From the sequence record PP410321: 64,000 nt of DNA; one strand, given 5' to 3'. Of the stretch, positions 5,955 through 63,722 are shown piece after piece; the first letter of the stretch is position 1; each line of letters begins with the position of its first letter. Below the pieces are notes generated by a model. The model worked only from the letters and a program-made list of their open reading frames with translations. It made no database searches and was not told the origin of the DNA. This stretch comes from Escherichia phage vB_EcoM_CUA3. The position numbers and the translations under genes are program-made.

Positions 5955-5998
5955 GTTGATAGGGTAATCTTATCACTACCCTATCTTGTTGTACACTG
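5955..5998 (-). promoter_or_regulatory. early-promoter-like cassette with inverted repeat
   Basis: minus-sense GTGTAC, spacer, TAAGAT, then CCTATCAAC; 9-bp inverted repeat GATAGGGTA/TACCCTATC brackets the -10. Confidence 0.4.
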
Positions 5999-6009
5999 CT
6001 TTTTAAACT

Positions 6010-6621
6010 TTATGAACGATGAATATTAGCATACTCGACAATAAAGCTTTCAGGAACTACTTTAAAGGTTCCAAGGAACACGATGTTATAAAGCTTAACG
6101 CCTTCTTCAACCCACTGGTCTGTGATGTAACCAGACATGCTGGTGGTTTCATAAGTACCGAAAATTTCGTCATAGTATTCAAACGGTTTAGGGGAAACGA
6201 AAAAGACACCTTGACCTAATTTCCATTTGAAATCAACACCTACATGAGATTGGTCAATAGTTTCAACGTCTTGAGCTACTACGCCACGGATATCATTGCT
6301 TTCACATACATACCCATCATGGGATTCGACTTCTTCAACTACAGGNNNNNNNNNNNNNNNNNNNNNNNNNNNNNNNNNNNNNNNNNNNNNNNNNNNNNNN
6401 NNNNNNNNNNNNNNNNNNNNNNNNNNNNNNNNNNNNNNNNNNNNNNNNNNNNNNNNNNNNNNNNNNNNNNNNNNNNNNNNNNNNNNNNNNNNNNNNNNNN
6501 NNNNNNNNNNNNNNNNNNNNNNNNNNNNNNNNNNNNNNNNNNNNNNNNNNNNNNNNNNNNNNNNNNNNNNNNNNNNNNNNNNNNNNNNNNNNNNNNNAGG
6601 TTTATTCTCCATAAGAGCCAT
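6010..6621 (-). CDS. hypothetical protein, paralog of adjacent gene
   Basis: 203-aa ORF (N-masked middle); C-terminus ITDQWVEEGVKLYNIVFLGTFKVVP is paralogous to 6651..7199; start uncertain because a promoter motif overlaps the first ATG. Confidence 0.45.
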   Translation of the reverse strand: MALMENKPXXXXXXXXXXXXXXXXXXXXXXXXXXXXXXXXXXXXXXXXXXXXXXXXXXXXXXXXXXXXXXXXXXXXXXXXXXXXXXXXXXXXPVVEEVESHDGYVCESNDIRGVVAQDVETIDQSHVGVDFKWKLGQGVFFVSPKPFEYYDEIFGTYETTSMSGYITDQWVEEGVKLYNIVFLGTFKVVPESFIVEYANIHRS

Positions 6622-6648
6622 TATAACATGGCTCTCGATAAAGTAAAC
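6620..6648 (-). promoter_or_regulatory. early-type promoter
   Basis: minus-sense GTTTAC, 17 nt, TATAAT; 8-bp inverted repeat AGAGCCAT/ATGGCTCT flanks the -10 hexamer. Confidence 0.5.
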
Positions 6649-6650
6649 TA

Positions 6651-7199
6651 TTAATTCAATACGTTAACCACTGCACTACGAGGTACTACGCTAAAATCAC
6701 CAGCATGAACAACGTTCAGAAGCTCAACACCATCTTCAACCCACTGGTCTGTTACCCATCCACAGATAGGATTATCAAAAGGACGGCGGATAGACACAGC
6801 ACGAGTTAGAAGGTCGGTAGGGCCTTGTTCTTCAACTTCTTGGAACAGGATGAACTCATCTTCATAAACCAGGTTTTTCTCTATTTTGTTATTATCTAAC
6901 CGGCGACCGTGGATGACGTAAGATTTGTCAAACCACTCACTTTTGGCAAATTCTTCAACAATAAATTCGCCTTCGCCAAAAACATCAGTCAGAGTTTTAT
7001 GGCCGGAAATCAAGGCATTAGTTTTAATTTCAGGTTCAACCAGTTTGTAGGTTTTTCCGATTTCGATAGTNNNNGTAGTCATAGTGGTTTCCTTAATTTC
7101 TAATGGTTCAATAGGGGCTACATAAGTGCTTAAAACATCAAAATCAATCAATTTGGCCGCCGGGTTCGGTGTGTATTTGGGATTATAATTAAATTTCAT
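6651..7199 (-). CDS. hypothetical protein, paralog of adjacent gene
   Basis: 182-aa ORF; C-terminus VTDQWVEDGVELLNVVHAGDFSVVP is paralogous to 6010..6621. Confidence 0.5.
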   Translation of the reverse strand: MKFNYNPKYTPNPAAKLIDFDVLSTYVAPIEPLEIKETTMTXXTIEIGKTYKLVEPEIKTNALISGHKTLTDVFGEGEFIVEEFAKSEWFDKSYVIHGRRLDNNKIEKNLVYEDEFILFQEVEEQGPTDLLTRAVSIRRPFDNPICGWVTDQWVEDGVELLNVVHAGDFSVVPRSAVVNVLN

Positions 7200-7201
7200 A
7201 A

Positions 7202-7705
7202 TTATCTCATTTCAATAAAATCTACGAGTTCAGCATGGGACTTGCGGAACATTACTTGGCGGTCACCAATGACTACCTCATCTTCAGGGATTTCGTAAAC
7301 AGCAAGGTAGAATCCTTTAGAAGATAATTCTTCGCGCTCTTCACGAGTGAACCAGCGCATCATATCATACTCGCTGGCAAAAGCAAAATGGTAGAGATTA
7401 ACAAACCAACCGGGNATATNNNNNNNNNNNNNNNNNNNNNNNNNNNNNNNNNNNNNNNNNNNNNNNNNNNNATTAGAATTTTTAACCAACAATTCATCTT
7501 GACTTGGTAGTGGGATGTTTTTATTATTAGTATGATGGTGTCTAAAATTAGGTCTGTCGAAACCCACTTCTAATAACCAACCTTCACTCCATTCATCAAA
7601 TGAGCCTCTATACGGGGTTAATTGGCGACATTGTTGACGAGTGATTGTGATAACATCGCTGTTATCTAAGATACTGAACGATGACTCAACTCGATAAATT
7701 TTCAT
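7202..7705 (-). CDS. hypothetical protein
   Basis: 167-aa ORF; ATG with GAGGAG SD; promoter cassette immediately upstream. Confidence 0.45.
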   Translation of the reverse strand: MKIYRVESSFSILDNSDVITITRQQCRQLTPYRGSFDEWSEGWLLEVGFDRPNFRHHHTNNKNIPLPSQDELLVKNSNXXXXXXXXXXXXXXXXXXXPGWFVNLYHFAFASEYDMMRWFTREEREELSSKGFYLAVYEIPEDEVVIGDRQVMFRKSHAELVDFIEMR

Positions 7706-7732
7706 TTTGTTCTCCTCATGTTGATAGGGTAG

Positions 7733-7761
7733 ATAATATCATGTCATGAGGAGAAGTAAAC
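7733..7761 (-). promoter_or_regulatory. early-type promoter with SD-complementary spacer
   Basis: minus-sense GTTTAC, 17 nt, TATTAT; spacer TCTCCTCATG is the exact reverse complement of 5'UTR CATGAGGAGA containing the SD. Confidence 0.6.
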
Positions 7762-7765
7762 ACTT

Positions 7766-10312: not shown

Positions 10313-11062
10313 TTAACCTCTAATCAGTGAAAAAATTGAAGCATTCAATGGAAGACCTTTTTTCAATTTCAATTTGTCAATAAAAGAAAGGTGTTCTAAA
10401 CGCTCCAGACCTTGAATGATTTTATCATACATATCGTAACGCATTTCTGCTTCAGATGATTTCATCTTAACACGCCAATCAGGTCCGCCCAATACAGATT
10501 TAAGGCCCTTTTCCATCTGGCCGATAGAGGCATTGGAACCATGGATACGAGCCTTGATAGCAATAACAGAAGGAGATTTATCGGTAGCTCCTGATTTAAT
10601 AAGGGCTTTAAGATGTTTTTCGCGTTTCTTTAGACCTTTTTGGGTATCTTTTATATTTTTAACGATTTTACGAATTTTATAATAATCGTCAGGAGTAACT
10701 TTAAAACTATTTGGCATTTTGGAACCGCCTGAAATACGAACCGCTAAACGGGTCTGAGCACGTTTCAGTTCATCAAGGGATAAATCCGCGCGTAAGCTGT
10801 TATACTTAACTTTAACTGGGATTACATTACCCTCGATATAACCGATATCGTTGTTAAAACGTTCAAACGAAATCTTATCATTAACTGAATTCTCATCAAA
10901 GTGCTCGCCTGAATATGCACACACTTTTTGTTCAAGAAGTCTACGAACGTACTTGCTAGATAGATTAAAGTCCTTACCACGTTTTTTGGCAGAGGCTTTG
11001 GTGTGTTCGCGACGTTTGTAAACCTTTGCNGCAAATTCATCGTTAGTTTTAATAGTAGGCAT
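10313..11062 (-). CDS. hypothetical protein in srd position
   Basis: 249-aa ORF; position and size match T4 srd; a weak degenerate HNH-like segment (CAYSGEHFD...NVIPV) was noted but not accepted. Confidence 0.4.
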   Translation of the reverse strand: MPTIKTNDEFXAKVYKRREHTKASAKKRGKDFNLSSKYVRRLLEQKVCAYSGEHFDENSVNDKISFERFNNDIGYIEGNVIPVKVKYNSLRADLSLDELKRAQTRLAVRISGGSKMPNSFKVTPDDYYKIRKIVKNIKDTQKGLKKREKHLKALIKSGATDKSPSVIAIKARIHGSNASIGQMEKGLKSVLGGPDWRVKMKSSEAEMRYDMYDKIIQGLERLEHLSFIDKLKLKKGLPLNASIFSLIRG

Positions 11063-11101
11063 AATATTTTCTCATCTTACAGACGATTAGTTGATAGGTC
11101 T

Positions 11102-11130
11102 ATAGTATCATGTGGCTCGATAAAGTAAAC
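11102..11130 (-). promoter_or_regulatory. early-type promoter
   Basis: minus-sense GTTTAC, 17 nt, (TGa)TACTAT, then AGACCTATCAAC. Confidence 0.6.
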
Positions 11131-11199: not shown

Positions 11200-11814
11200 T
11201 CAGTAAGAAAGAACTGAAAGATTCCAAATGGTGTAATTATTCCATTTAGGATTTCTCTCAATAGAGTCTACGCGTAGCGTAGTTCCCGCAGGGAACATCA
11301 TCTCATCTTCATCATTAATTAATTGTAAGTTTGCTACACGGGTAGATTCAGGAAATGCGCCTGGGAACTCTTCAGGGGGCGCAGCACATAACATTTTAAA
11401 GATTTCTTCCTGATAATTGTACACAAATGGTGCATCATTAATACAAAAGATATTAAATGTGCCGTAGAAGTTATAAGATGCAAAATTCCTTGCCACGTTG
11501 AAGTCTTTAGAGAAGCTCATCACGCGGTCGAATTCAATTACCGCACCCACACACATTGTGGACTCTAGATACTTTAGGGTCTTTTTAGATATACCGCGAT
11601 AGAGCTTATCAGGCACTACAGAAGTCAGATTCTTACGAATGATTTTGTTCAAAGTTTCTTGGATAGAATCCGGTTTATTTTCCATACACTGCCAGAGCGT
11701 GCTCTGTTCTAAATCGGAATACACCTCATCAATTTCTATCTGAGTATTCTCACGGAAATCCTCGCATTTGGCATTGTCGATAAATTCTGCTAATTTATGG
11801 CTTGGGTATAACAT
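11200..11814 (-). CDS. modB: ADP-ribosyltransferase (ModB-like, R-S-E class)
   Basis: 204-aa ORF; LYRGIS (Arg), SFS (Ser-x-Ser) and acidic EDE motif in ART order; paralog of the adjacent ORF; T4 order dda-srd-modB-modA. Confidence 0.65.
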   Translation of the reverse strand: MLYPSHKLAEFIDNAKCEDFRENTQIEIDEVYSDLEQSTLWQCMENKPDSIQETLNKIIRKNLTSVVPDKLYRGISKKTLKYLESTMCVGAVIEFDRVMSFSKDFNVARNFASYNFYGTFNIFCINDAPFVYNYQEEIFKMLCAAPPEEFPGAFPESTRVANLQLINDEDEMMFPAGTTLRVDSIERNPKWNNYTIWNLSVLSY

Positions 11815-11868
11815 ATTATTCTCCTCAGTTGACAGAAAGATAGTAACATAAGCATCCTTGCCTGTAAA

Positions 11869-12438
11869 CTAAAAATCCAACATTTTTAAATGAATTGTTT
11901 TGTACTCGATTTCGTATGGGTCCCTTTTGATAGTTTCGATTTCCACAATCTCGAACCGTGATAGACTGGAGACCATAAACTCACATTCAGTTTCAACCAT
12001 ATCATAAAGGTCTATGCGAGTTTCATCTATTTCAAGTTCATCTACGTTCCCTGCAAGAACAAGGTCAATAGCGTGGTTGTAGTAGTCGAAAATGAAGGGC
12101 GCATTCCTGAGACTTAAAATGGTTTTTGTTCCATATTCCCATGCCCCTGCAAACTGACGAGCCTGAGAGTATTGTGTACTAAAAGAAGTAACCCGGCCAG
12201 GAGACCACTGACACCCTACAGAAAGAACTTCAAGTTGCTCAAGTTCTCTGGGGGTAATCCCACGATAAAGCTCTACCGGAACCACTGAAGTAACATGCTT
12301 ACGAACCAGTTTGTCAAGGTCGTAATGGAAGTTAGGGTCTTTTTTGGCGTCCAGACATTTCTCTAACAATGCCTGTTCAGATTTTGAAAATTTGGAATTG
12401 ATTCGGTCTTGATAAAGACATTTTTGTTCGATGTTCAT
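11869..12438 (-). CDS. modA: ADP-ribosyltransferase (ModA-like, R-S-E class)
   Basis: 189-aa ORF; VTSVVPVELYRGIT and SFSTQ motifs; N-terminal half paralogous to 11200..11814. Confidence 0.65.
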   Translation of the reverse strand: MNIEQKCLYQDRINSKFSKSEQALLEKCLDAKKDPNFHYDLDKLVRKHVTSVVPVELYRGITPRELEQLEVLSVGCQWSPGRVTSFSTQYSQARQFAGAWEYGTKTILSLRNAPFIFDYYNHAIDLVLAGNVDELEIDETRIDLYDMVETECEFMVSSLSRFEIVEIETIKRDPYEIEYKTIHLKMLDF

Positions 12439-12462
12439 ATGACCTCCGGTGATTTAGAGGTC

Positions 12463-12490
12463 ATTATAACATGAAGGGAAGGGATGTAAA
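12463..12490 (-). promoter_or_regulatory. promoter with extended -10 upstream of modA-like gene
   Basis: minus-sense TTTACA, 16 nt, TGtTATAAT; downstream inverted repeat GACCTC/GAGGTC covers the GGAGG SD. Confidence 0.5.
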
Positions 12491-12493
12491 ACT

Positions 12494-13837: not shown

Positions 13838-14047
13838 TCATAGGAAACCTCTTTTAAATTCAACTTTATCAATATCATCAGTCTCGTGACGGATTTCGGC
13901 ATTAAATTCGATAGAGCCGTCTTCATGCATCATAAATGAATGGACAATAACTTCAGTATACCAAGGAGTATAGAAGTACTTTTTCAATACGTGATTAGCG
14001 ATAATTTCATCCAAAGTTTTATTTGGTTTAATCCAACGGTTTAACAT
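13838..14047 (-). CDS. hypothetical protein
   Basis: 69-aa ORF; ATG with GAGGAG SD; promoter cassette upstream. Confidence 0.4.
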   Translation of the reverse strand: MLNRWIKPNKTLDEIIANHVLKKYFYTPWYTEVIVHSFMMHEDGSIEFNAEIRHETDDIDKVEFKRGFL

Positions 14048-14073
14048 AGTGTTCTCCTCTATAAGATACGTCT

Positions 14074-14103
14074 ATCTTAACATGGTCTACTCGTAAAGTA
14101 AAC
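14074..14103 (-). promoter_or_regulatory. early-type promoter
   Basis: minus-sense GTTTAC, 18 nt, TGtTAAGAT; inverted repeat TAAGATA/TATCTTA overlaps the -10. Confidence 0.5.
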
Positions 14104-17458: not shown

Positions 17459-17702
17459 CGCAGTACAGAACATAGTTATACTGCATAACACCACTGGAAG
17501 CCAATTGGTCGGATACTTCTTTAACCATATCAGGACGGTCGCGTTTAGTGATGTTCATGATATCAGCATAAATCTGATGTTCAACTGATTCTTGGTCTGC
17601 AGTCATTGACCATTCACAAAGGTCTTTATCCAATCCGGCTGTAACTGGAGCCGTACCACATGATGCTACTGTAAGGATTGCTGCGATTAATAACTTTTTC
17701 AT
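17409..17702 (-). CDS. sp: Spackle periplasmic protein (superinfection exclusion, lysozyme inhibitor)
   Basis: true start MKKLLIAAILTVASCG (signal peptide, lipobox-like VASC); mature region DKDLCEWSMTADQ...VMQYNYVLYCD matches T4 Sp as recalled. Confidence 0.7.
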   Translation of the reverse strand: MKKLLIAAILTVASCGTAPVTAGLDKDLCEWSMTADQESVEHQIYADIMNITKRDRPDMVKEVSDQLASSGVMQYNYVLYCDANFDNKNIVKEVTGE

Positions 17703-17730
17703 TTTTAACTCCTCATTAGTTGATAGGTCT

Positions 17731-17760
17731 ATAGTATCACTACCATAGACCGATGTAAAC
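17731..17760 (-). promoter_or_regulatory. early-type promoter upstream of sp
   Basis: minus-sense GTTTAC, 18 nt, TACTAT, then AGACCTATCAAC; GGTCTAT/ATAGACC inverted repeat. Confidence 0.6.
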
Positions 17761-18346: not shown

Positions 18347-18664
18347 TTAGATTTCCTCGCAGAAGGCCCATTCAGCATGATAAACCGTAGCGCCTTTAGT
18401 ATCATTTAAACAAACCACATCCACCGGAGCAATTACACGATAAAGACGAGGTTCTCCTCCCACTGAACGAGCAGCTCGTCCAGCATAAATCTTAGCCAAA
18501 CCGATGTCCTCAGTAAAGAATACACGATTCAGGTTTTTCTTACGACCAGTTTCAGACAGAACTCCTGTTTCCTCAGGAGGACAAAGCATATTACCAATAT
18601 TAGCAACACTACAACTTCCGTGATAATACACTTTATATTCTGCTTTACAGTCGATGGTTTCCAT
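18347..18664 (-). CDS. hypothetical protein with Arr-like ADP-ribosyltransferase signature
   Basis: about 105 aa from METID; YYHGSCSVANIGNML resembles the HGT motif region of rifampin ADP-ribosyltransferase Arr (H-Y-E class) as recalled; GGAGAA SD; no T4 counterpart at this position. Confidence 0.4.
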   Translation of the reverse strand: METIDCKAEYKVYYHGSCSVANIGNMLCPPEETGVLSETGRKKNLNRVFFTEDIGLAKIYAGRAARSVGGEPRLYRVIAPVDVVCLNDTKGATVYHAEWAFCEEI

Positions 18665-18688
18665 TTTATTCTCCAAGTTGATAGGTCT

Positions 18689-18717
18689 ATAATAACATAA
18701 CTAAAGGAGAAGTAAAC
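18689..18717 (-). promoter_or_regulatory. early-type promoter
   Basis: minus-sense GTTTAC, 17 nt, TGtTATTAT, then AGACCTATCAAC. Confidence 0.6.
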
Positions 18718-26748: not shown

Positions 26749-26981
26749 TGTTTAACAATAATGATTTGTGCGTTTGATTTACGTTCAGCGGCGATAGCCC
26801 AGATTAAAGCCACTACCCAACCAATCATTGTCCACCCTAACAAGAGATTAAGGAAGAAGATTCCGACATTACTACGGGTGCCTCGCAGAAGAGCTAAAAT
26901 CCATGGTAAGAAGTAAGCGACGAACATCATAACCAGAGAACCGAATCCTAAAACACCAGCACTAACGATTAAAGCTTCCAT
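26745..26981 (-). CDS. imm: superinfection immunity membrane protein
   Basis: 78-aa ORF with two predicted TM helices; position between 43 and 42 as T4 imm. Confidence 0.6.
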   Translation of the reverse strand: MEALIVSAGVLGFGSLVMMFVAYFLPWILALLRGTRSNVGIFFLNLLLGWTMIGWVVALIWAIAAERKSNAQIIIVKQ

Positions 26982-27011
26982 TGTAATTTCCTCANGTAGT
27001 TGTTAGGATGG

Positions 27012-27041
27012 ATAATACCACGTTCCATGTGGTATGTAAAC
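27012..27041 (-). promoter_or_regulatory. early-type promoter upstream of imm
   Basis: minus-sense GTTTAC, 18 nt, TGgTATTAT; inverted repeat ATACCAC/GTGGTAT overlaps the -10. Confidence 0.55.
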
Positions 27042-38989: not shown

Positions 38990-39029
38990 AATAATTTCCT
39001 CAGTTNNNNAATTTATAATCCGTAGGACC

Positions 39030-39059
39030 ATTATACTCCGGTCCCAAGAGTTTGTAAAC
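39030..39059 (-). promoter_or_regulatory. early-type promoter
   Basis: minus-sense GTTTAC, 18 nt, TATAAT; inverted repeat GGACC/GGTCC flanks the -10. Confidence 0.55.
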
Positions 39060-40122: not shown

Positions 40123-40151
40123 AATGTTCTCCTCATGTGTTGATAGGATAG

Positions 40152-40180
40152 ACTATACCACGTGAGGAGAGGAAGTAAAC
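40152..40180 (-). promoter_or_regulatory. early-type promoter with SD-complementary spacer
   Basis: minus-sense GTTTAC, 17 nt, TGgTATAGT; spacer TCTCCTCACGTG pairs with 5'UTR CACATGAGGAGA (11 of 12). Confidence 0.6.
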
Positions 40181-43388: not shown

Positions 43389-44399
43389 TCATTTCAACAG
43401 CTCCAGAGCTTGTTCAAGACGGTCTAAACGATTGGTAGACTCTTCCCAAAGTTTCTTGGCGGCAGTATATTGACCGGTAAGTTTTTTGTTAATAGCAAGG
43501 GCATCTTTATACGCTTTTTCCAAAGCAACTATTTCTGGCAACTTAGATTTAGTAATTGGCGTAGGAGCCATGATAGGGCTATTCAAGTCATTAATCAAGT
43601 CTTCTAATGTAGCAGGCTCTTTATCAATGTTCACAATTTCCTCACATTTTTCTTGGTAAATTTCGGCATCAGTTTTTGGAACACGGCATTTGATTTCACG
43701 GACTGTTACTAAGACCTCATATCCTTTCCAGCCTAAGTGGTGTTTAACTTCTTGGGTCTCATATTTCTCTACTGTATCCATCAGAGCTAAAGCTTGTTCG
43801 ATAGTATTCAAGGTATCATAAGCAATATCTTGATACTTTACAACTTCCGCGTCATCTTTAGGTTTCCTATTAGGTGACCAAATAACAGAAATAATTGCTT
43901 TTCCTTTATAACTATTTGTTTTAATCATGCAATTCGCCATAGGGTGAATAGTACGGGAACCACCGGAAACTATGGTTTTAGAGGCCGCTTTGAGAATTAA
44001 TGCAGAGTTAGCCTTGAATTCGGTAACCCAACGTTGTGGAAATAAACTACTAGGGTCCATACCTTTAATTTTGATATAACTTTTTATGGTATCACCAAAC
44101 CATTTGTAGCTAACAGCATGGCTAGAACCCGGATATTTCTCTTTACCGAACTCAGAAAGGATGTCCTTATTGACCAGTCGCGAAAGCAGTCGAGAACCTT
44201 TAAATGTATTTACGATATCAGGAATAAACAAGCGACCCGCGATCTTTTCGATTTCGGCTTTGAAACAGCGCGATAATGCATCATCAATTTGGTCGACCCA
44301 TTTATTGATATTAGAAACTATTACCACATATGGGGTTAATGGAGGGGTGTTGGCAGTGATATACGTAGTAAAGGCATTGATGTATTCAGTACGAGTCAT
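43389..44399 (-). CDS. hypothetical protein
   Basis: track ORF trimmed to the ATG (MTRTEY) with GAGGAG SD downstream of a promoter cassette; about 336 aa. Confidence 0.45.
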   Translation of the reverse strand: MTRTEYINAFTTYITANTPPLTPYVVIVSNINKWVDQIDDALSRCFKAEIEKIAGRLFIPDIVNTFKGSRLLSRLVNKDILSEFGKEKYPGSSHAVSYKWFGDTIKSYIKIKGMDPSSLFPQRWVTEFKANSALILKAASKTIVSGGSRTIHPMANCMIKTNSYKGKAIISVIWSPNRKPKDDAEVVKYQDIAYDTLNTIEQALALMDTVEKYETQEVKHHLGWKGYEVLVTVREIKCRVPKTDAEIYQEKCEEIVNIDKEPATLEDLINDLNSPIMAPTPITKSKLPEIVALEKAYKDALAINKKLTGQYTAAKKLWEESTNRLDRLEQALELLK

Positions 44400-44427
44400 G
44401 ATATTCTCCTCANNAGTTGATAGAAAG

Positions 44428-44457
44428 ATTATACTCCATCCATCCTTGGATGTAAAC
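44428..44457 (-). promoter_or_regulatory. early-type promoter
   Basis: minus-sense GTTTAC, 18 nt, TATAAT, then CTTTCTATCAAC. Confidence 0.55.
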
Positions 44458-46547: not shown

Positions 46548-47072
46548 TTATGCGAGAACCGTCTTTAAACGCTCTTCAAATTTCTGAAGCAGAGCTTGGC
46601 GTTCAGCTCGTTGTGATTTGTACTGCTCGATACGACCTGAAGTGAGGGCGTACTGTTCGTTTACTGATTCCCGCATAAATTCAGGAATCTCTTTACAAGC
46701 TTTGATTTCGTCAAACTTATCAATAACCGCTTGTTCCTCGGCAATCAGATTATCGAAATAAGCGATATCCGATTTAACGTTTGCCAGGTCAGATTCAGTA
46801 GGCATTAAACGTTTGTTACGTTCAGCTTGATAAGCCTGGTTGGTTTCACGACTCCAGTGGAGAGTACGTTTTTTGTTAGTGTTTTTATAGAGCTCTACAA
46901 TACCAACTGAATCGATGATAGCAATCCAGTTCCAACGGCTTTTGTAAATCTCTCCTCCAGATACGGTAATCTCATTACCACAAGCAACGTCGTTAAAGAA
47001 CTTGCTTTGTTTTTCAGATTTGAAATTACCGTTGTTAAAATTAATCAGTGAAAAAATATCTTTAGCGTTCAT
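46548..47072 (-). CDS. hypothetical protein
   Basis: 174-aa ORF; promoter cassette upstream. Confidence 0.45.
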   Translation of the reverse strand: MNAKDIFSLINFNNGNFKSEKQSKFFNDVACGNEITVSGGEIYKSRWNWIAIIDSVGIVELYKNTNKKRTLHWSRETNQAYQAERNKRLMPTESDLANVKSDIAYFDNLIAEEQAVIDKFDEIKACKEIPEFMRESVNEQYALTSGRIEQYKSQRAERQALLQKFEERLKTVLA

Positions 47073-47098
47073 GATAACCTCCAGTAGTTGATAGGTCT

Positions 47099-47127
47099 AT
47101 AGTATCATTTCTACTGGAGATGTAAAC
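47099..47127 (-). promoter_or_regulatory. early-type promoter with SD-complementary spacer
   Basis: minus-sense GTTTAC, 17 nt, TGaTACTAT; spacer CTCCAGTAG pairs with 5'UTR CTACTGGAG. Confidence 0.6.
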
Positions 47128-47481: not shown

Positions 47482-48462
47482 TTATTTCAGAAGTGTAACT
47501 TCAGCGATTTCGCTCCAGTCATTTTTATCGGTGGCAATGAAGTCCGCCAGATAAAGAGCTGTACGTAATGATACGTTACGAAGGCGAGATACATTAGCCT
47601 TCATCCATGCTAAAGCTTGATAAGTCTCGGCATCGTTCAGACCACGGTTTTGCATCATATCAGTGGACAAGATAACGTCTTCAACACGAACCATAATCTC
47701 TTCGTTTGAGTGAACACCCAAGTCGAGATAAACGGAACGAGATACTAAAGCCTGGAGGTGTGGAGCAAGTTTAGTACCACGTTCTAATTCACGGTCAATA
47801 TCAACGTTGGTGATGAACACGATGGTGCCTTCGTATTCGAATTCTTTATCGATGTTTTTATCATCGAGATAAGAACTTGAAGTGCTCCAACATACCTTAC
47901 GTTTCTCGCCTGTATCCAATGCCGCTTTCAGAAGGTTCAGGATATCCATGTCAGAGAATACATCAACATCATCGATAAGAAGAACACTATTAGGGCCGCG
48001 GTTATTCCAAAGCTGCTCGTAAAGACCGATTCCACTAATCTTTCCGTTGATTGATTTATATTCGATAGTTTCATTTTCGTGGGCATTCTGTAATGCTTTA
48101 TCCAAAGAGTATGTTTTACCAATACCGGCGGCACCAGAGATGATAAGGGAACGAATTTTACCATCGATGATTCCGTTAGTCATCATGTTCATTACTTTAA
48201 AACGTTTGTTGATGCGGTGTTTCATTTCTTCGGCGGATTCGGTAATCGCTACAGGAGCTTCAGCACCTTCCATTTCGATGTCACATTTAAACACCCATAC
48301 ACCACGTTCAACACCATCAATCTGTACAAATACCTTACCATCACCGAGATGAGCTTCAGATTCATGAATTTTATTAGGAAACCAGGTTTTACCTGAACTC
48401 ATGAACGTACCAGAGATTTCATTACCGCGATAGATGCCTTTGTTGATTTTGATAGTTAACAT
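47482..48462 (-). CDS. P-loop NTPase (AAA-like ATPase)
   Basis: Walker A ISGAAGIGKTYSL, Walker B VLLIDDVD; start trimmed to ATG (MLTIKINKG) with GAAGGAGAA SD. Confidence 0.55.
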   Translation of the reverse strand: MLTIKINKGIYRGNEISGTFMSSGKTWFPNKIHESEAHLGDGKVFVQIDGVERGVWVFKCDIEMEGAEAPVAITESAEEMKHRINKRFKVMNMMTNGIIDGKIRSLIISGAAGIGKTYSLDKALQNAHENETIEYKSINGKISGIGLYEQLWNNRGPNSVLLIDDVDVFSDMDILNLLKAALDTGEKRKVCWSTSSSYLDDKNIDKEFEYEGTIVFITNVDIDRELERGTKLAPHLQALVSRSVYLDLGVHSNEEIMVRVEDVILSTDMMQNRGLNDAETYQALAWMKANVSRLRNVSLRTALYLADFIATDKNDWSEIAEVTLLK

Positions 48463-48477
48463 TTTATTCTCCTTCAC

Positions 48478-48508
48478 TCAGTAGATTTGATAGGTCCATA
48501 ATAACATG
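48478..48508 (-). promoter_or_regulatory. promoter cassette fragment (-10 and CCTATCAA box; -35 masked)
   Basis: minus-sense TGtTATTAT GGACCTATCAAATC; upstream half lies in an N run. Confidence 0.35.
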
Positions 48509-48799
48509 NNNNNNNNNNNNNNNNNNNNNNNNNNNNNNNNNNNNNNNNNNNNNNNNNNNNNNNNNNNNNNNNNNNNNNNNNNNNNNNNNNNNNNNNNNNN
48601 NNNNNNNNNNNNNNNNNNNNNNNNNNNNNNNNNNNNNNNNNNNNNNNNNNNNNNNNNNNNNNNNNNNNNNNNNNNNNNNNNNNNNNNNNNNNNNNNNNNN
48701 NNNNNNNNNNNNNNNNNNNNNNNNNNNNNNNNNNNNNNNNNNNNNNNNNNNNNNNNNNNNNNNNNNNNNNNNNNNNNNNNNNNNNNNNNNNNNNNNNNN

Positions 48800-48817
48800 T
48801 GATAGGTCTATAATAAC
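48800..48817 (-). repeat. promoter cassette fragment flanked by N runs
   Basis: GTTATTATAGACCTATCA on the minus strand, identical to the cassette core; implies an intergenic region and a masked small gene between 48509 and 48799. Confidence 0.35.
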
Positions 48818-48921
48818 NNNNNNNNNNNNNNNNNNNNNNACTTTTTTGCACTAAACCCAAAAAAGGNNNNNNNNNNNNNNNNNNNNNNNNNNNNNNNNNN
48901 NNNNNNNNNNNNNNNNNNNNN

Positions 48922-51469: not shown

Positions 51470-51920
51470 TATGCTTTCAACTCATTAAGATACTCAACCA
51501 AGGCTGCTTTAGAGTTAGCCAAATCCCGTTTACACTGCTCTATTCCGGAATACGAATAGCCTTCGCAATATTCAACAGCTAGGTCATTGGATGCGTTTTC
51601 AATGTGCTGGGCGAGTTTGATAATTTTCTCAATCTGTTCAGTAGTTAACATAANNNNNNNNNNNNNNNNNNNNNNNNNNNNNNNNNNNNNNNNNNNNNNN
51701 NNNNNNNNNNNNNNNNNNNNNNNNNNNNNNNNNNNNNNNNNNNNNNNNNNNNNNNNNNNNNNNNNNNNNNNNNNNNNNNNNNNNNNNNNNNNNNNNNNNN
51801 NNNNNNNNNNNNNNNNNNNNNNNNNNNNNNNNNNNNNNNNNNNNNNNNNNNNNNNNNNNNNNNNNNNNNNNNNNNNNNNNNNNNNNNNNNNNACTNTTCT
51901 CCTCATTAGTTGATAGGTCT

Positions 51921-51949
51921 ATAGTATCACGTTCCTAGAGGATGTAAAC
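51921..51949 (-). promoter_or_regulatory. early-type promoter
   Basis: minus-sense GTTTAC, 17 nt, TGaTACTAT, then AGACCTATCAACTAATGAGGAG. Confidence 0.6.
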
Positions 51950-55556: not shown

Positions 55557-56015
55557 TTAAAGATAGATTACTTTCGTGCTGGTTTTACCTTCTAAACGTT
55601 TAGAGTTAACAAATGCCATACGGCATTTTAATGAATATCCTTTATCAGGATGTTTACGGTCTACGGTCATACCCAACCATAAGGTTTTATCGGTAATCTC
55701 GAGACGCAGTGGTCGATACACTTTACCTGGGACAATTTCAGATTCTACATCAGGAAGAGGCTCCTGGATTAAAAATTCATGGATTTCTTTAACATGATTG
55801 TGGAGCTTCTTGAACAAAGAGAAAACATATTTTTCGTCAATTTCACGTTGGATAGCACGGTCCAACAGGTGATTAGAGTACTTAATAAAGAAAGCTGGGA
55901 CACCGCTCTTGACGGCGGCTTTTTTGATGGACGCGTTAAGTTCACGAAATTCGGTTTCGAACTGTCGACGTAATTTGTTGCGGCGGATGAATACTTCTGA
56001 ATTAATTTCTGACAT
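55557..56015 (-). CDS. regB: RegB sequence-specific endoribonuclease
   Basis: 152-aa ORF collinear with T4 RegB (EVFIRRNKLRR...HLLDRAIQREIDE). Confidence 0.8.
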   Translation of the reverse strand: MSEINSEVFIRRNKLRRQFETEFRELNASIKKAAVKSGVPAFFIKYSNHLLDRAIQREIDEKYVFSLFKKLHNHVKEIHEFLIQEPLPDVESEIVPGKVYRPLRLEITDKTLWLGMTVDRKHPDKGYSLKCRMAFVNSKRLEGKTSTKVIYL

Positions 56016-56043
56016 TTTGTAATCTCCTGTAGTTGATAGGTCT

Positions 56044-56072
56044 ATAGTACCACGCCTACAGGAGATGTAAAC
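56044..56072 (-). promoter_or_regulatory. early-type promoter with SD-complementary spacer (regB)
   Basis: minus-sense GTTTAC, 17 nt, TGgTACTAT; spacer ATCTCCTGTAGG pairs with 5'UTR CTACAGGAGAT. Confidence 0.6.
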
Positions 56073-57475: not shown

Positions 57476-57844
57476 TTACAGGTTGGNNNNNNNNNNNNNN
57501 NNNNNNNNNNNNNNNNNNNNNNNNNNNNNNNNNNNNNNNNNNNNNNNNNNNNNNNNNNNNNNNNNNNNNNNNNNNNNNNNNNNNNNNNNNNNNNNNNNNN
57601 NNNNNNNNNNNNNNNNNNNNNNNNNNNNNNNNNNNNNNNNNNNNNNNNNNNNNNNNNNNNNNNNNNNNNNNNNNNNNNNNNNNNNNNNNNNNNNNNNNNN
57701 NNNNNNNNNNNNNNNNNNNNNNNNNNNNNNNNNNNNNNNNNNNNNNNNNNNNNNNNNNNNNNNNNNNNNNNNNNNNNNNNNNNNNNNNNNNNNNNNNNNN
57801 NNNNNNNNNNNNGATTCTGTAATAAATTGTTGATAAGTTTTCAT
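57476..57844 (-). CDS. internal-protein-like gene (capsid-targeting N-terminus; body N-masked)
   Basis: starts MKTYQQFITE, matching the T4 internal-protein capsid targeting sequence (MKTYQEFIAE) as recalled; lies next to denV as ipII/ipIII do in T4. Confidence 0.45.
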   Translation of the reverse strand: MKTYQQFITEXXXXXXXXXXXXXXXXXXXXXXXXXXXXXXXXXXXXXXXXXXXXXXXXXXXXXXXXXXXXXXXXXXXXXXXXXXXXXXXXXXXXXXXXXXXXXXXXXXXXXXXXXXXXXXNL

Positions 57845-57886
57845 ATTATTCCTTAAGTTGATAGAAGTATTCTATCACGGATTTAA

Positions 57887-58303
57887 TTAAGCGTAAATAG
57901 CCTTACCATAATGTTTGTACCAGGTAGGGCGTTGTGCAATTTTTTCATCCAAACGGGCTTGTGAAATAGCGATAGAAGCTTCGTGAGGAACATAATCACC
58001 ACGGAATTCCTGAGGAATGTCGCTAATATCCTGGACCGTAGTATCCTTGATATTAAAACCACGTTTTAAACATTCGGCTATAAGCTCAATTTGGCGTTTA
58101 CGTAAGAACTCTAGCTTATCGTAAAAGAACGTAACATGACCTGTGCCAAGGATAAAAGTAGGACTGATTTTGAAATCACGAACACGTTTACCATTAGCCA
58201 CATGCTTACGAACTGCACCGAAAACACGGGGTAATTCACGATATTCGGCCATAAGATGTTGGTCAGCCAATTCAGATACTAAGGTAAGGTTGATACGAGT
58301 CAT
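57887..58303 (-). CDS. denV: endonuclease V (pyrimidine-dimer DNA glycosylase/AP lyase)
   Basis: 138-aa ORF, near-collinear with T4 DenV ([26 protein letters not shown]...). Confidence 0.9.
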
Positions 58304-58305
58304 TT

Positions 58306-58758
58306 TTAATCTCCTGTAGTTGATAGGTTTATAGTATCATGCCTACAGGAGATGTAAACNNNNNNNNNNNNNNNNNNNNNNNNNNNNNNNNNNNNNNNNN
58401 NNNNNNNNNNNNNNNNNNNNNNNNNNNNNNNNNNNNNNNNNNNNNNNNNNNNNNNNNNNNNNNNNNNNNNNNNNNNNNNNNNNNNNNNNNNNNNNNNNNN
58501 NNNNNNNNNNNNNNNNNNNNNNNNNNNNNNNNNNNNNNNNNNNNNNNNNNNNNNNNNNNNNNNNNNNNNNNNNNNNNNNNNNNNNNNNNNNNNNNNNNNN
58601 NNNNNNNNNNNNNNNNNNNNNNNNNNNNNNNNNNNNNNNNNNNNNNNNNNNNNNNNNNNNNNNNNNNNNNNNNNNNNNNNNNNNNNNNNNNNNNNNNNNN
58701 NNNNNNNNNNNNNNNNNNNNNNNNNNNNNNNNNNNNNAAATTCATTGTAAGTTTTCAT
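58306..58758 (-). CDS. internal-protein-like gene (capsid-targeting N-terminus; body N-masked)
   Basis: starts MKTYNEF; the rest is masked; position between denV and lysozyme as T4 ipII/ipIII. Confidence 0.45.
58331..58359 (-). promoter_or_regulatory. early-type promoter with SD-complementary spacer (denV)
   Basis: minus-sense GTTTAC, 17 nt, TGaTACTAT; spacer ATCTCCTGTAGG pairs with 5'UTR CTACAGGAGAT. Confidence 0.6.
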
Positions 58759-59480
58759 NNNNNNNNNNNNNNNNNNNNNNNNNNNNNNNNNNNNNNNNNN
58801 NNNNNNNNNNNNNNNNNNNNNNNNNNNNNNNNNNNNNNNNNNNNNNNNNNNNNNNNNNNNNNNNNNNNNNNNNNNNNNNNNNNNNNNNNNNNNNNNNNNN
58901 NNNNNNNNNNNNNNNNNNNNNNNNNNNNNNNNNNNNNNNNNNNNNNNNNNNNNNNNNNNNNNNNNNNNNNNNNNNNNNNNNNNNNNNNNNNNNNNNNNNN
59001 NNNNNNNNNNNNNNNNNNNNNNNNNNNNNNNNNNNNNNNNNNNNNNNNNNNNNNNNNNNNNNNNNNNNNNNNNNNNNNNNNNNNNNNNNNNNNNNNNNNN
59101 NNNNNNNNNNNNNNNNNNNNNNNNNNNNNNNNNNNNNNNNNNNNNNNNNNNNNNNNNNNNNNNNNNNNNNNNNNNNNNNNNNNNNNNNNNNNNNNNNNNN
59201 NNNNNNNNNNNNNNNNNNNNNNNNNNNNNNNNNNNNNNNNNNNNNNNNNNNNNNNNNNNNNNNNNNNNNNNNNNNNNNNNNNNNNNNNNNNNNNNNNNNN
59301 NNNNNNNNNNNNNNNNNNNNNNNNNNNNNNNNNNNNNNNNNNNNNNNNNNNNNNNNNNNNNNNNNNNNNNNNNNNNNNNNNNNNNNNNNNNNNNNNNNNN
59401 NNNNNNNNNNNNNNNNNNNNNNNNNNNNNNNNNNNNNNNNNNNNNNNNNNNNNNNNNNNNNNAGGAGATGTAAACNNNTT

Positions 59481-59969: not shown

Positions 59970-60000
59970 AATTACCTCCTGAGTATAGGAGGTATTTATA

Positions 60001-61949: not shown

Positions 61950-61963
61950 AATATTTTCCTCAC

Positions 61964-62188
61964 TTACTTTTTGTTGAAAAAGTACATTTTACCTTTAGGG
62001 GATAAGGATACACGAAGTGCGTTACCAATACCAACTGAACATTTAACCAGGTCAGCAGATTTCAATTCACCAAATGCTTGACGAAGGTCACCGTCACGAG
62101 TGTTAACCATCAGGCATTTAGCACCAGCTGCACGAACTTCGTTTAACATGTTGATTGCTTGGTTAGAAAGTTTCATTTTATTCTCCAT
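61964..62188 (-). CDS. hypothetical protein
   Basis: track ORF trimmed to MENKMKLS, downstream of the promoter cassette that the longer ORF would span. Confidence 0.4.
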   Translation of the reverse strand: MENKMKLSNQAINMLNEVRAAGAKCLMVNTRDGDLRQAFGELKSADLVKCSVGIGNALRVSLSPKGKMYFFNKK

Positions 62189-62213
62189 TTCACTCTGTTG
62201 TTTTGATAGGTCT

Positions 62214-62242
62214 ATAGTATCACACCTATAGACCTTGTACAC
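62214..62242 (-). promoter_or_regulatory. early-type promoter variant
   Basis: minus-sense GTGTAC, 17 nt, TGaTACTAT; perfect 9-bp inverted repeat GGTCTATAG/CTATAGACC around the -10. Confidence 0.5.
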
Positions 62243-62254
62243 TGTTTTATGCAA

Positions 62255-63214
62255 TTATTTTTCGAAAGGGCGAATTAAATGATGGTTATCTTGGAACCGC
62301 TTGATGTAGTCTTCNNNACCTAACGTCTTATACATATTCACTACAGCTTGGTAGTTTTCCCAGGCATACTCACGGAACCACCCGGAAGTAATTGAGGTGC
62401 ACACTTTCTCAAGAGCNNNNNNNNNNNNNNNNNATGGTGAAATATTAAAGTCATTAGGAACCTGCGAACGTTCTAGTGCCAACACACAGGTTTCTTCATA
62501 TACACCAGCTAGTTTAATAGCTTCAGGCAAAGCTTCAAACTTCTCACGAGAGGTCATGACTTCAGAACCATCTTTCATATAAAAGGTATATGCAGGGCGG
62601 CCTGCCAATGCCACGGCTTCATGAATAGAGTCATGGTCCAGCGTATAAATGGTATCGTTAAAGAATGACGATTTATTAACATCCAATTTAGGATGAGAAT
62701 AGCTCAACGTTTCTTTCTGACGTTGCAGCATGATTTCTTGGAGCTCTTCGTTCAAGGTTACACCTTTATTACGAAGGTATTTGATGTGAGACATCGTCTT
62801 CAGAAAGAACGGGTTGTTCTTCAAATAACGATGGCTCATTTTGATGGCCAGACAGATATCAGGAGTAGCCCAATAGAAACCTGTAAGACGGTCTTTCTTA
62901 ATATGGTTTTCAGCATATTTCAAGAGACGATAGCTTGAAGTGAAATCCTCATCTTGAAGTTCGCCAGTAATTTCACGGACATTAGTCAGAGCACGAACGA
63001 TATAAGCTTCAAAATAGGTTTCTTTACCATTGTGCATGCATTTAAAGGCCTGGACATCAGGGTTGTCTACATGTACATGGGCGCCGAACATCCGAGCTTT
63101 AAATTGATTCCATGACCCCTGGTCGGCAATAAAATCCCAATCAGAATTTTCGATATATTTACTTTCAATCAAACCAGCGTGGTGCAGTGCACGAGAACCA
63201 ATAACTAGCATCAT
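62255..63214 (-). CDS. hypothetical protein
   Basis: 319-aa ORF; ATG with GAGGAAAA SD. Confidence 0.45.
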   Translation of the reverse strand: MMLVIGSRALHHAGLIESKYIENSDWDFIADQGSWNQFKARMFGAHVHVDNPDVQAFKCMHNGKETYFEAYIVRALTNVREITGELQDEDFTSSYRLLKYAENHIKKDRLTGFYWATPDICLAIKMSHRYLKNNPFFLKTMSHIKYLRNKGVTLNEELQEIMLQRQKETLSYSHPKLDVNKSSFFNDTIYTLDHDSIHEAVALAGRPAYTFYMKDGSEVMTSREKFEALPEAIKLAGVYEETCVLALERSQVPNDFNISPXXXXXXALEKVCTSITSGWFREYAWENYQAVVNMYKTLGXEDYIKRFQDNHHLIRPFEK

Positions 63215-63241
63215 AATATTTTCCTCATTAATAAAGACGAG

Positions 63242-63394
63242 TTACTTCATATTTACCCAGTTCAGATTTTTTGCTTCAATACGCGTTGCGGCTAGATTAG
63301 CAGCCTCTAGTGAAGAAAATTGGACCACTTGGGAAGTATTCTGCCTTACGCCACCTTGTGGGTGAGTAACAAAAACAATAAGAACATTATACAT
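63242..63394 (-). CDS. hypothetical small protein
   Basis: 50-aa ORF below the track cutoff with GAGGAAAA SD. Confidence 0.3.
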   Translation of the reverse strand: MYNVLIVFVTHPQGGVRQNTSQVVQFSSLEAANLAATRIEAKNLNWVNMK

Positions 63395-63415
63395 AATATT
63401 TTCCTCAGAGTAAAC

Positions 63416-63664
63416 TTAAATTTCAGCAACGTAATCGTTATGCAATTCCCACATATCATCAGAATTATTCTTAATGATAGGAATTATCTCATTAGAGATT
63501 TCTTCTGCATAAGGGTCATTGATACAGTGAGCATCTTCAAAACGAACACCGTAATCAGACTTCTTATAGGCAAAGCCATAAATCTTTTTAAACTTGGCAC
63601 GACTAATGCGCACCGGCTCATCAGACTTATCAGACTTATCAGACAGTGGAGAGTAATACCACAT
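63416..63664 (-). CDS. hypothetical protein
   Basis: 82-aa ORF; GAGGAG SD; promoter-like motif upstream. Confidence 0.4.
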   Translation of the reverse strand: MWYYSPLSDKSDKSDEPVRISRAKFKKIYGFAYKKSDYGVRFEDAHCINDPYAEEISNEIIPIIKNNSDDMWELHNDYVAEI

Positions 63665-63692
63665 AATGTTCTCCTCATGTTTGTGTAAGGTA

Positions 63693-63722
63693 ATAGTAAC
63701 ACAAGTTTTTAGAGTTGTACAT
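63693..63722 (-). promoter_or_regulatory. early-type promoter variant
   Basis: minus-sense TGTACA, about 18 nt, TGtgTTACTAT. Confidence 0.4.

Follow-up and report, generated by a model that had tools for sequence, protein, structure and literature searches.

Early promoters of bacteriophage T4 belong to a class composed of an UP tract, a -35 element GTTTAC, a TGn extension and a -10 element (PMC2988021; PMC1524935). Sigma-70 promoters have also been described within promoter-early-stem-loop (PeSL) cassettes, which consist of an AT-rich region, the promoter, a stem-loop, and a Shine-Dalgarno (SD) sequence with an ATG (Arbiol et al. 2010, PMC2839356). The stem mostly lies between the -35 and -10 elements or overlaps the -10 element, and PeSL-like sequences of phage JS98 were mentioned in the same paper. 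The family was later widened to T4/PST and nt-1/KVP40 (Comeau et al. 2014, PMC4122927). In the T4 genes e, soc, 49 and I-TevI, the SD is locked in a helix on long transcripts, and a promoter in the 5' arm or in the loop gives rise to short transcripts without the inhibitory arm, which are translated (PMC3014915). In this study, we analyzed a family of promoter cassettes in a 64,000-nucleotide stretch of DNA of Escherichia phage vB_EcoM_CUA3 (PP410321), the whole of which is hereafter called the window. With a probability of roughly 0.6, the best explanation as a whole is that these elements are immediate-early promoters packaged as PeSL-type cassettes with hairpins that would be formed only in read-through RNA.

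A 12-kb piece of the window matched Escherichia phages JS10 and JS98 and other Dhakaviruses (T4-like Straboviridae) with about 96% identity over 98% of its length, and the JS10 coordinates of the matching piece were those of the window. The coordinates of the open reading frames (ORFs) are identical to those of bases 1-64000 of Dhakavirus JS10 (EU863409.1), from which the window differs by 2992 substitutions (about 5%) with no indels or register shift. All annotated genes of the window lie on the minus strand, and 6250 positions in about 90 runs are N. Judging from the common coordinates, the window is a JS10-coordinate consensus of a close relative that spans the rIIA to e/nudE region, and its makeup suggests that the consensus was guided by a reference and that divergent stretches were kept as N. 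The N-masked stretches were read from JS10. This was the case for the cassettes 59475, 48838 and 48526, which are largely N in the window (each cassette is called by the first base of its -35 element).

The inventory comprises 23 cassettes, all on the minus strand and each located 24-50 nt upstream of a start codon (Table 1). Their -35 elements begin at 63722, 62242, 59475, 58359, 57898, 56072, 51949, 48838, 48526, 47127, 44457, 40180, 39059, 27041, 18717, 17760, 14103, 12491, 11869, 11130, 7761, 6648 and 5996. More than 20 copies upstream of minus-strand start codons had been claimed in a first-pass annotation, which a model had made from the letters of this stretch; the claim stands, and the limits of the region given there (5955 and 63722) correspond to the first and last copies. 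The order of the elements is an A-rich tract, GTTTAC, 17-18 nt, TGn-TAYTAT, AGACCT followed by ATCAAC, a GGAG-type SD and ATG, and an SD site with an ATG is found downstream of 23/23 cassettes. The context shared at CTATCAA-like sites reads aaaaGT-GTTTAC-N17/18-(G)TGaTAcTAT-AGACCTATCAAC-taatGAGGAG-N-ATG. The -35 element is GTTTAC in 16 copies, GTGTAC in four, and ATTTAC, TTTTAC and ATGTAC in one copy each. The spacer is 17 nt long in 13/23 cassettes and 18 nt long in 10/23. Most cassettes have (G)TGnTAYTAT, with aaaa(g)t directly 5' of the -35 element, and a generic promoter scan also flagged a TG before the second hexamer at the cassette matches.

The box AGACCTATCAAC occurs six times exactly in the window, always on the minus strand. 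With up to 2 mismatches it gave 14 matches against 4.55 expected, a number reached in 0/100 shuffles. A strict consensus scan (GTTTAC and TATAAT, each with up to 1 mismatch) found only 17 minus-strand matches, several of them intragenic, and was replaced by a weight matrix because it missed the copies with TACTAT. The matrix had two blocks (the -35 block and the -10/start block, with a spacer of 16-19) and was built from 20 clear copies. On the minus strand of the window it gave 20-21 matches at 15-25 bits or more, a count that largely recovers its own seeds. The independent support for the matrix is therefore the absence of matches elsewhere: there were 0 on the plus strand of the window and about 0 in dinucleotide shuffles. 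The inventory of 23 consists of the matrix copies and three weaker intergenic copies. Chance or low complexity as the origin of the motif was ruled out by the shuffles and the strict strand bias. A generic sigma-70 scan was non-discriminating (64 matches with 51 expected, and 48 with 45 expected), so that the cassette family is visible only with its own matrix. At gathering thresholds, Rfam gave no match in the window.

A genome-wide motif search had been proposed together with the first description. In the whole JS10 genome, the same matrix gave 45 matches on the early-gene (minus) strand and 0 on the other strand, and about 43 of the 45 stand directly before an SD site and an ATG. Four cassettes (51949, 48838, 18717 and 14103) lie directly downstream of a UUCG-loop intrinsic terminator, in which a G+C-rich hairpin is followed by a U tract; this agrees with the earlier remark that several copies have such a neighbor.

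The likeness to T4 early promoters, noted in the first-pass annotation, was borne out. When bases 1-76000 of the T4 genome (NC_000866) were scanned in the same way, 25 promoters of the cassette build were obtained, including the downstream ...CTATCAACTACTGAGGAG region. The -35 element, the TGn/-10 element and the A-rich tract of the cassettes fit the published descriptions. Common to both are GTTTAC, the spacing of 17-18 nt, the TGn-extended -10 element, an A-rich tract around -40 and the leader ...CTATCAACTA(A/C)TGAGGAG, and in both the promoters stand before early genes and point toward them. The denV promoter of T4 is almost base-for-base that of the denV and regB cassettes of the window. 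On the other hand, the window prefers TACTAT or TATTAT at the -10 element, and its start box is AGACCTATCAAC, whereas that of T4 is ACAACTATCAAC. The cassette types also differ at some orthologous loci: in the window regB carries a denV-type cassette, and 55.2 carries a cassette of the T4 motB type (39059; its identity with the T4 motB promoter, located at a non-orthologous locus, is about 86%).

The PeSLs of RB49/phi1, PST/T4 and nt-1/KVP40 share with the cassettes of the window the composite build, the many repeats on the early strand and, at individual loci, the small ORFs and the indels. The AT-rich region, the sigma-70 promoter, the stem-loop, and the SD with ATG are all there, and the resemblance noted in the first pass is real in this respect. 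The stems of the cassettes are placed like those of RB49/phi1, between the -35 and -10 elements or over the -10 element. The RB49 promoter, however, is a near-perfect TTGACA, and the cassettes are of the GTTTAC type of T4. In addition, their stems are not built of a G tract and a C tract, and have no U tract. The PST/T4 stems were published as lying "just upstream of the promoter", whereas in the window and in our T4 scan stems also lie inside the promoter. The cassettes are, then, the already known T4-type early promoters in PeSL form, here in a phage of the JS10/JS98 group, and we are highly confident that they serve as early promoters.

The stems inside the promoters were analyzed by folding each copy from the -35 element to the ATG. 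Stems counted as strong when the helix had at least 6 bp, its 5' arm preceded the start, and the minimum free energy did not exceed -10 kcal/mol. The five inverted repeats named in the first-pass annotation are all present (at 6648, 62242, 5996 and 27041, and as GGACC/GGTCC at 39059). The statement that nearly every copy has such a repeat was too broad, as a strong stem was found in 13/23 cassettes and the stems of the others are weak. Two classes of stems can be distinguished. In the first (62242, 17760, 5996, 6648, 39059 and 27041), the spacer is paired with the discriminator and the last bases of the -10 element, so that the -10 element lies in or at the loop and the SD is free. In the second, hereafter the anti-SD class, the SD region is paired with the beginning of the spacer. 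Clear helices of 8-11 bp of this class are found at 58359, 56072, 47127, 40180 and 7761; anti-SD pairing is also found at 12491 and, in weaker form, at 18717 and 51949. The SD site serves as the 3' arm in 7-12 copies of the window, and in the fold of minimum free energy it is paired with sequence preceding the start in 12/23 copies of the window and 10/25 copies of T4. The first-pass annotation named the -10 flank as the partner, and the SD as the partner of the spacer arm in many copies was missed there.

The transcription start (+1) was placed from the spacing at about 7 nt after the -10 element, at the first A of ATCAAC, which is predicted for example at 56037, 58324, 47092 and 7726 of the window. 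A C-rich region from -3 to -1 in relatives (PMC1524935) agrees with this position. All folded copies have their 5' arm between the -35 element and this putative +1. The hairpin would therefore be formed only in RNA that reads through from upstream, and not in the cassette's own transcript.

Whether the two arms belong together was analyzed by dividing each copy into a 5' part (the spacer) and a 3' part (from the -10 element to the ATG) and calculating duplex energies for all combinations. In the window (n = 23), the native mean was -10.5 kcal/mol, compared with -7.2 +/- 0.5 for swapped partners. The corresponding values were -10.0 and -7.1 +/- 0.34 (z = -8.6) in the whole JS10 genome (n = 44), and -9.9 and -6.1 +/- 0.44 in the scanned part of T4 (n = 25). 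In each of the three sets, 0/20000 permutations reached the native value. Even swapped partners give low energies, since the (A/T)TCTCC at the beginning of many spacers matches any GGAG SD; the native excess stems from copy-specific extensions. In our view, the embedded stems are very probably under selection.

The arms change from copy to copy in a concerted manner. The regB promoters of six lineages were folded singly, because a MAFFT alignment brought their helices out of register and was left unused for pair counts. The hairpin is kept in all six with different arms (Table 1), the -10 element being in the loop or in the 3' arm, and the SD is sequestered in 5/6 lineages. In an alignment of nine anti-SD copies and orthologues in the same register, 93.9% of the cells pair, and 5/11 pairs have changed on both sides. 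Neither the observed percentage paired nor the covariation score was reached in any of 500 shuffles (0/500); the counts of pairs and of pair types were reached by 11 and 13 of 500 shuffles, respectively, and slid controls gave 36-63% paired. Since the anti-SD subset for this count was chosen by eye, the covariation count is weaker evidence than the permutation tests. Paralogues of the -10-bracketing class in JS10 show the same behavior: where AGCCC or AGCCT replaces AGACC, the spacer has changed to match, and GGGACC/GGTCC is altered to GGGAGC/GCTCC. The pairing is thus copy-specific and maintained by compensatory changes.

These properties bear on the original reading of PeSL stem-loops, in which the embedded stems are transcription terminators or attenuators, the cassette resets transcription, and the pairing with the SD is incidental. 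Attenuation of read-through was proposed by Arbiol et al. (2010, PMC2839356), and, as attenuation also demands, the hairpins of the window are limited to read-through RNA. The cassettes behind a UUCG terminator also tend to have weaker internal stems (p = 0.06). No T/U tract, however, follows the promoter-embedded stems; the tails after them are A-rich (for example ...GGAGATTACAAAATG). A terminator scan flagged none of them on either strand, and the same scan detected the true UUCG terminators upstream of the cassettes. The loops of 20-25 nt in the anti-SD class would make poor terminator hairpins. Moreover, attenuation leaves unexplained the use of the SD as the 3' arm in 12/23 copies and its pairing at regB in 5/6 lineages. 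Since the embedded stems lack a U tract, the terminator label of the PeSLs is not transferable on sequence grounds, although the rest of the resemblance holds, and we consider a terminator or attenuator role unlikely. A terminator on the opposite strand was also considered and rejected: about 9 nt separate the stem from the T run that complements the UP tract, and the scan gave no hit at this place.

Another explanation would place the function in double-stranded DNA. The inverted repeats would then be targets, as cruciforms or through a palindrome-sensing protein, by which early promoters are shut off a few minutes after infection. The repeats are indeed centered on the promoter itself, and how T4 shuts off its early promoters is, according to a review, incompletely understood (PMC3014915). 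However, from established DNA energetics, cruciform extrusion should be poor for stems of 7-11 bp with loops of 8-25 nt. About 40% of the promoters of the same class have no strong repeat, and G-U pairs occur in the helix, which are informative for RNA and not for DNA. We regard this explanation as highly improbable. A sequence-specific palindromic operator bound by a dimeric repressor was ruled out, because the arms differ from copy to copy.

The SD sites themselves have a distinct character. Within 22 nt upstream of the starts, a GGAG SD was found in 13/20 cassette genes and in 9/101 other genes of the window (Fisher p = 2e-7). Many cassette SD sites read GGAGAATAAAATG, which is near the RegB/S1 target consensus of T4, and GGAG with an A-rich tail is present in 20/44 JS10 cassettes. 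The target of RegB/S1 in T4 is single-stranded GGAGAAUAAAA (PMC1702504), and RNA structure reportedly protects against RegB cleavage (PMC3014915). In GGAG and the A-rich run, the cassette SD sites resemble in sequence the RegB/S1 sites of T4 early mRNAs. The regB gene itself lies within the window and has a GGAG-type site.

The nearest precedent for the anti-SD class is provided by the T4 genes e, soc, 49 and I-TevI. In both, the SD pairs with an upstream arm, and the transcript of the embedded promoter lacks this arm. In the T4 cases, however, the embedded promoter is of the late type (TATAAATA), and the hairpin acts on timing, in that early translation does not occur; the cassettes of the window are sigma-70 early promoters, and translation would be confined by them to the immediate-early burst. 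Among the SD-sequestering leaders of the window, TATAAATA is found only in that of gene e (59973-59994) and not in the cassettes. The start of gene e, at 59969, is just downstream of this leader, which is conserved as in T4. In the accessible reviews, older subscription literature aside, we found no case of an SD-sequestering hairpin with an early promoter, and pairing between spacer and SD is undescribed in the accessible reviews and the PeSL papers. The words "translat" and "ribosome" occur 0 times in the PeSL paper of Arbiol et al. (2010, PMC2839356). Because the anti-SD cassettes share the geometry of the e/soc/49/I-TevI device, occlusion of the SD in read-through RNA is proposed here; the chances that it is the function of the anti-SD class appear about even.

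The working of a cassette might be pictured as follows. After the UUCG terminator of the upstream unit (in four copies) come an A-rich UP-like tract, the -35 element, the spacer of 17-18 nt, TGn with TAYTAT, and AGACCT, then the putative +1 at the first A of ATCAAC, a leader of about 20-45 nt, the GGAG (A-rich) SD and the ATG. Transcription from these promoters by the sigma-70 RNA polymerase of the host would begin directly upon infection. As the SD resembles the RegB/S1 target consensus of T4, it is possible that the messages are inactivated a few minutes later by RegB at the GGAG-A-rich SD. In about half of the copies, the spacer is complementary to a downstream element, either the -10 element with the discriminator or the SD. 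In the anti-SD class, read-through RNA would have both the ribosome-binding site and the RegB site locked in a helix. At the gene in question such RNA would escape both translation and RegB cleavage, and translation would be tied to the gene's own early promoter. Expression of these genes would then follow their own promoter and stop at early-promoter shut-off. The -10-bracketing stems would be located entirely before +1; for these, attenuation of read-through or protection of upstream RNA at its 3' end may be the role.

Several points weigh against SD occlusion in read-through RNA as the explanation of the family. It cannot explain the -10-bracketing stems, because these leave the SD free, and a single mechanism is not enough for the whole set. 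Nor is the hairpin a constant component of the cassette, as 10/23 cassettes have a weak stem or none. The position of +1, and with it the restriction of the hairpin to read-through RNA, is deduced from the -10 spacing and the published T4-group logos. It is also possible that the 3' arms fall on the -10 flank or the SD since a free spacer most easily matches a fixed partner. One RB49 stem-loop (PeSL211/210) reportedly reduced lacZ expression about as strongly as rrnB T1 (Arbiol et al. 2010, PMC2839356), a terminator-like result that favors another function at least in RB49. The internal stems of cassettes after a terminator are weaker (-7.4 compared with -10.5 kcal/mol), which is compatible with any read-through-related role, and this is a trend only (p = 0.06-0.07; pooled one-sided p = 0.06). 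To these may be added the choice by eye of the anti-SD subset and the loss of cassette enrichment at rearrangement sites under a gene-boundary null (see below).

If SD occlusion is nevertheless correct for the anti-SD class, several consequences would follow. The principle of e/soc/49/I-TevI, seen at a few late promoters, would then apply to a large fraction of the early ones as well, and the PeSL stem-loops would be translational insulators and not terminators. Densely packed early genes could each keep a sharp immediate-early window despite later read-through transcription. There would also be a structural reason why RegB spares identical GGAG sites within longer middle-mode transcripts. It is conceivable, though we put it somewhat below an even chance, that T4-type early promoters inside read-through-only, SD-hiding hairpins are a general device from T4 to the Klebsiella Jiaodaviruses. 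Such a device would make immediate-early translation, and RegB cutting at GGAG, depend on the gene's own promoter. The less expected part of the present results is the pairing between spacer and SD, which is statistically solid, shows compensatory changes across genera, and is equally found in T4.

A last explanation holds that the cassettes are primarily mobile recombination modules of the PeSL type, with excision and integration of mini-circles, and that the repeats are DNA-level sites of recombination or junction processing. Mini-circles have been demonstrated for RB49 and phi1 (PMC2839356), and the first-pass annotation had suggested a comparison of the cassettes with synteny breakpoints. 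Between JS10 and JS98/WG01 there are 17 insertions, deletions or replacements within the range of the window. At 6/17 of these sites a junction lies at most 30 nt from a cassette, compared with 1.4 expected at random placement (P = 0.0004), and 9/30 long N runs of the window abut a cassette (2.7 expected). Three junctions coincide exactly with the 5' edge of a -35 element (12490/12494, 58359 and 59476), and one falls between the -10 hairpin and the SD (6598). The link to breakpoints therefore stands above random placement, but not above gene boundaries: under a gene-boundary null, the six junctions compare with 4.65 expected (P = 0.31). Since the signal collapsed under this null, we do not claim a specific enrichment of breakpoints, and the window differs from the described PeSLs in this respect.

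Other observations also concern recombination. The tandem cassettes 48838 and 48526 flank a small ORF. A block of 120 nt, composed of the UUCG terminator, TTTTTGGGTTTAGTGCAAAAAAGT, the promoter with the spacer ATCTGCTTTAAACATG, the leader and CGGAGATAnAAAAATG, is 84% identical at 48440-48900 of the window and at 165230-165720 of JS10. The latter locus, 117 kb away and outside the window, lies upstream of motA and also has a tandem pair, at 165654 and 165309 of JS10. The two blocks drive ORFs of 76 and 75 aa, between which BLASTP gave no match, and at both loci a second cassette copy and then a conserved gene (nrdC.10 and motA, respectively) follow. The exact-edge junctions, the tandem copies, the shared block and the relocated cassette types are suggestive of shuffling. 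On the other hand, 11/17 rearrangements have no cassette nearby, and most cassettes stand before conserved early genes at positions common to T4. Homology-driven exchange requires a direct repeat and not an internal inverted repeat. Arms that differ and co-vary between copies fit a selected structure better than a common recombination site. It is thus distinctly unlikely, in our judgment, that recombination is the primary role. The 40-120 bp of near-identical cassette sequence along one strand would nevertheless offer homology by which small ORFs could be inserted, deleted or swapped. The cassettes plausibly serve as recombination homology in this sense, not evidently beyond other gene boundaries, and from its repeats the pair 48838/48526 is predicted to be the best substrate for mini-circle recombination.

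Table 1. Promoter cassettes of the window, with associated junctions, ORFs and hairpin arms (MFE, minimum free energy in kcal/mol; arms are given as 5' arm/3' arm).
Feature	Position	Strand	Details
Cassette before cef	5934..5996	-	-35 GTGTAC 5991-5996, -10 5967-5972, putative +1 about 5960; stem GATAGGGTA/TACCCTATC around -10, SD free, MFE -16.6
Cassette before motB	6571..6648	-	stem AGAGCCAT/ATGGCTCT around TATAAT
Junction in motB cassette	6597/6598		N run and JS98/WG01 replacement junction begin between -10 hairpin and SD/ATG
Cassette before motB.2	7703..7761	-	11-bp anti-SD stem TTCTCCTCATG/CATGAGGAGAA, MFE -19.4
Cassette before srd	11060..11130	-	exact AGACCTATCAAC box, without strong stem
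Cassette before modA	11812..11869	-	weak stem
Cassette before modB	12436..12491	-	TTTTAC -35; hairpin ATGACCTCT/GGAGGTCAT, 5' arm overlapping -10 and start, 3' arm being the SD site
Junction at modB cassette	12490/12494		233-bp insertion of JS98 and WG01 exactly at 5' edge of -35
Cassette before mrh.2	14045..14103	-	UUCG terminator 14118-14137 upstream; variable soc segment (N run 14148-14723) just upstream
Cassette before sp	17700..17760	-	stem GGTCTATGG/CTATAGACC around -10 (one mismatch relative to the repeat at 62242), MFE -16.0
Cassette before ORF upstream of dmd (JS10 EpJS10_0034)	18662..18717	-	6-bp anti-SD stem TTCTCC/GGAGAA; UUCG terminator 18731-18748
Cassette before imm (gene 43 region)	26979..27041	-	stem ATACCAC/GTGGTAT ending in -10
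Cassette before 55.2	38987..39059	-	stem GGGACC/GGTCC around TATAAT
Cassette before 55.6	40120..40180	-	anti-SD stem TCTCCTCA/TGAGGAGA, MFE -18.4
Cassette before nrdC.4	44397..44457	-	small local stems only
Cassette before nrdC.8	47070..47127	-	anti-SD stem ATCTCCAGTAG/CTACTGGAGGT, MFE -18.3; differing from regB and denV stems by a compensatory pair
Tandem cassettes 48838 and 48526	48460..48838	-	near-identical, 39-nt exact direct repeat, 312 bp apart in JS10
ORF between tandem cassettes	48529-48759	-	76 aa, unannotated in JS10 EU863409.1; WG01 ORF93 at corresponding place
Interval of tandem cassettes	48509-48799		mostly N in window; upstream copy 48838 preceded by UUCG terminator
Cassette 51949	51890..51949	-	preceded by UUCG terminator 51962-51987
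ORF after cassette 51949	51656-51892	-	78 aa, unannotated in JS10 EU863409.1; WG01 ORF99 at corresponding place
Cassette before regB	56013..56072	-	11-bp anti-SD stem ATCTCCTGTAG/CTACAGGAGAT, MFE -19.1
Weaker cassette before JS10 EpJS10_0110	57842..57898	-	ATTTAC -35; gene body replaced in WG01, N in window (57487-57812)
Cassette before denV	58301..58359	-	anti-SD stem identical to that of regB, MFE -19.3; near-identical to T4 denV promoter
Junction at denV cassette	58359/58360		N run and WG01 deletion junction begin exactly at 5' edge of -35
Cassette before ipIII	59394..59475	-	mostly N in window, read from JS10; WG01 405-bp insertion exactly at 5' edge of -35 (59476)
Leader of gene e (not a cassette)	59973-59994	-	late promoter TATAAATA, then hairpin TACCTCCT-ATAC-TCAGGAGGTA sequestering lysozyme SD
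Cassette 62242	62174..62242	-	9-bp stem GGTCTATAG/CTATAGACC around -10, MFE -15.4
Weakest cassette, before JS10 EpJS10_0121	63662..63722	-	ATGTAC -35, 6.7 bits
regB arms, Dhakavirus			ATCTCCTGTAG/CTACAGGAGAT
regB arms, Mosigvirus			TTCTCCTCTAGTTG/CAACTAGAGGAGAA
regB arms, T4			TTTTCCTCTTGACTG/CAGTTAAGAGGAGAA
regB arms, Karamvirus			outer TCTCC/GGAGA, inner GGGCTATGA/CTATAGCCC
regB arms, Jiaodavirus and phage Roth34			outer TTTCCTT/AAGGAGA, inner GGGCCATG/TATGGCCC
regB arms, Klebsiella phage Clarke_MM3			GGTGTAAGAGTAT/ATTCTTACACC, SD free

For annotation, the present analysis provides base-level positions for 23 promoters, two small ORFs that the JS10 record lacks, and one probable correction of a start. 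The correction concerns the counterpart of EpJS10_0119. The ATG at 62174-62176, which is preceded by GGAGAATAAA, is in frame with this gene and lies 27 nt upstream of the annotated start at 62149, and the counterpart probably starts at ATG 62176 (70 aa). The 78-aa ORF downstream of cassette 51949 coincides with an N run of the window (51654-51892).

Some minor observations were made on segments that vary between the window and its relatives. The long N runs of the window coincide with segments replaced or deleted between JS10 and JS98/WG01 (for example 6346-6597, 14148-14723, 21746-21874, 57487-57812 and 58360-58737). At 14145-14699, JS10 has two soc-like genes, and JS98 and WG01 have one (553 compared with 248 bp); the window is N there. 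The segment extends to the UUCG terminator of cassette 14103, which leaves about 40 nt between it and the cassette. Within cassette 18717, the window and JS10 differ at several adjacent positions of the spacer and -10 element between 18689 and 18717 (TTTAGTTATGTTATTAT compared with TGTAGGCATGATACTAT), and the flanks are near-identical. The pattern resembles conversion of a short patch by another copy of the cassette.

Three further promoter-like sites on the minus strand lie outside the family. The site at 63386-63415 (GTTTAC-18-TATAAT) has no cassette downstream box and is located within a 200-bp intergenic gap, of which 160 bp (63231-63392) are missing from WG01. The matches at 42302-42331 (in gene 49.1) and 39453-39482 (in gene 55.5) have GTTTAC-18-TATAAT/TACAAT and score 12-15 bits. 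Both are without the downstream box and the SD site, and they may be weak internal promoters or chance matches. The former is located about 90 bp from a deletion of WG01 (41789-42244).

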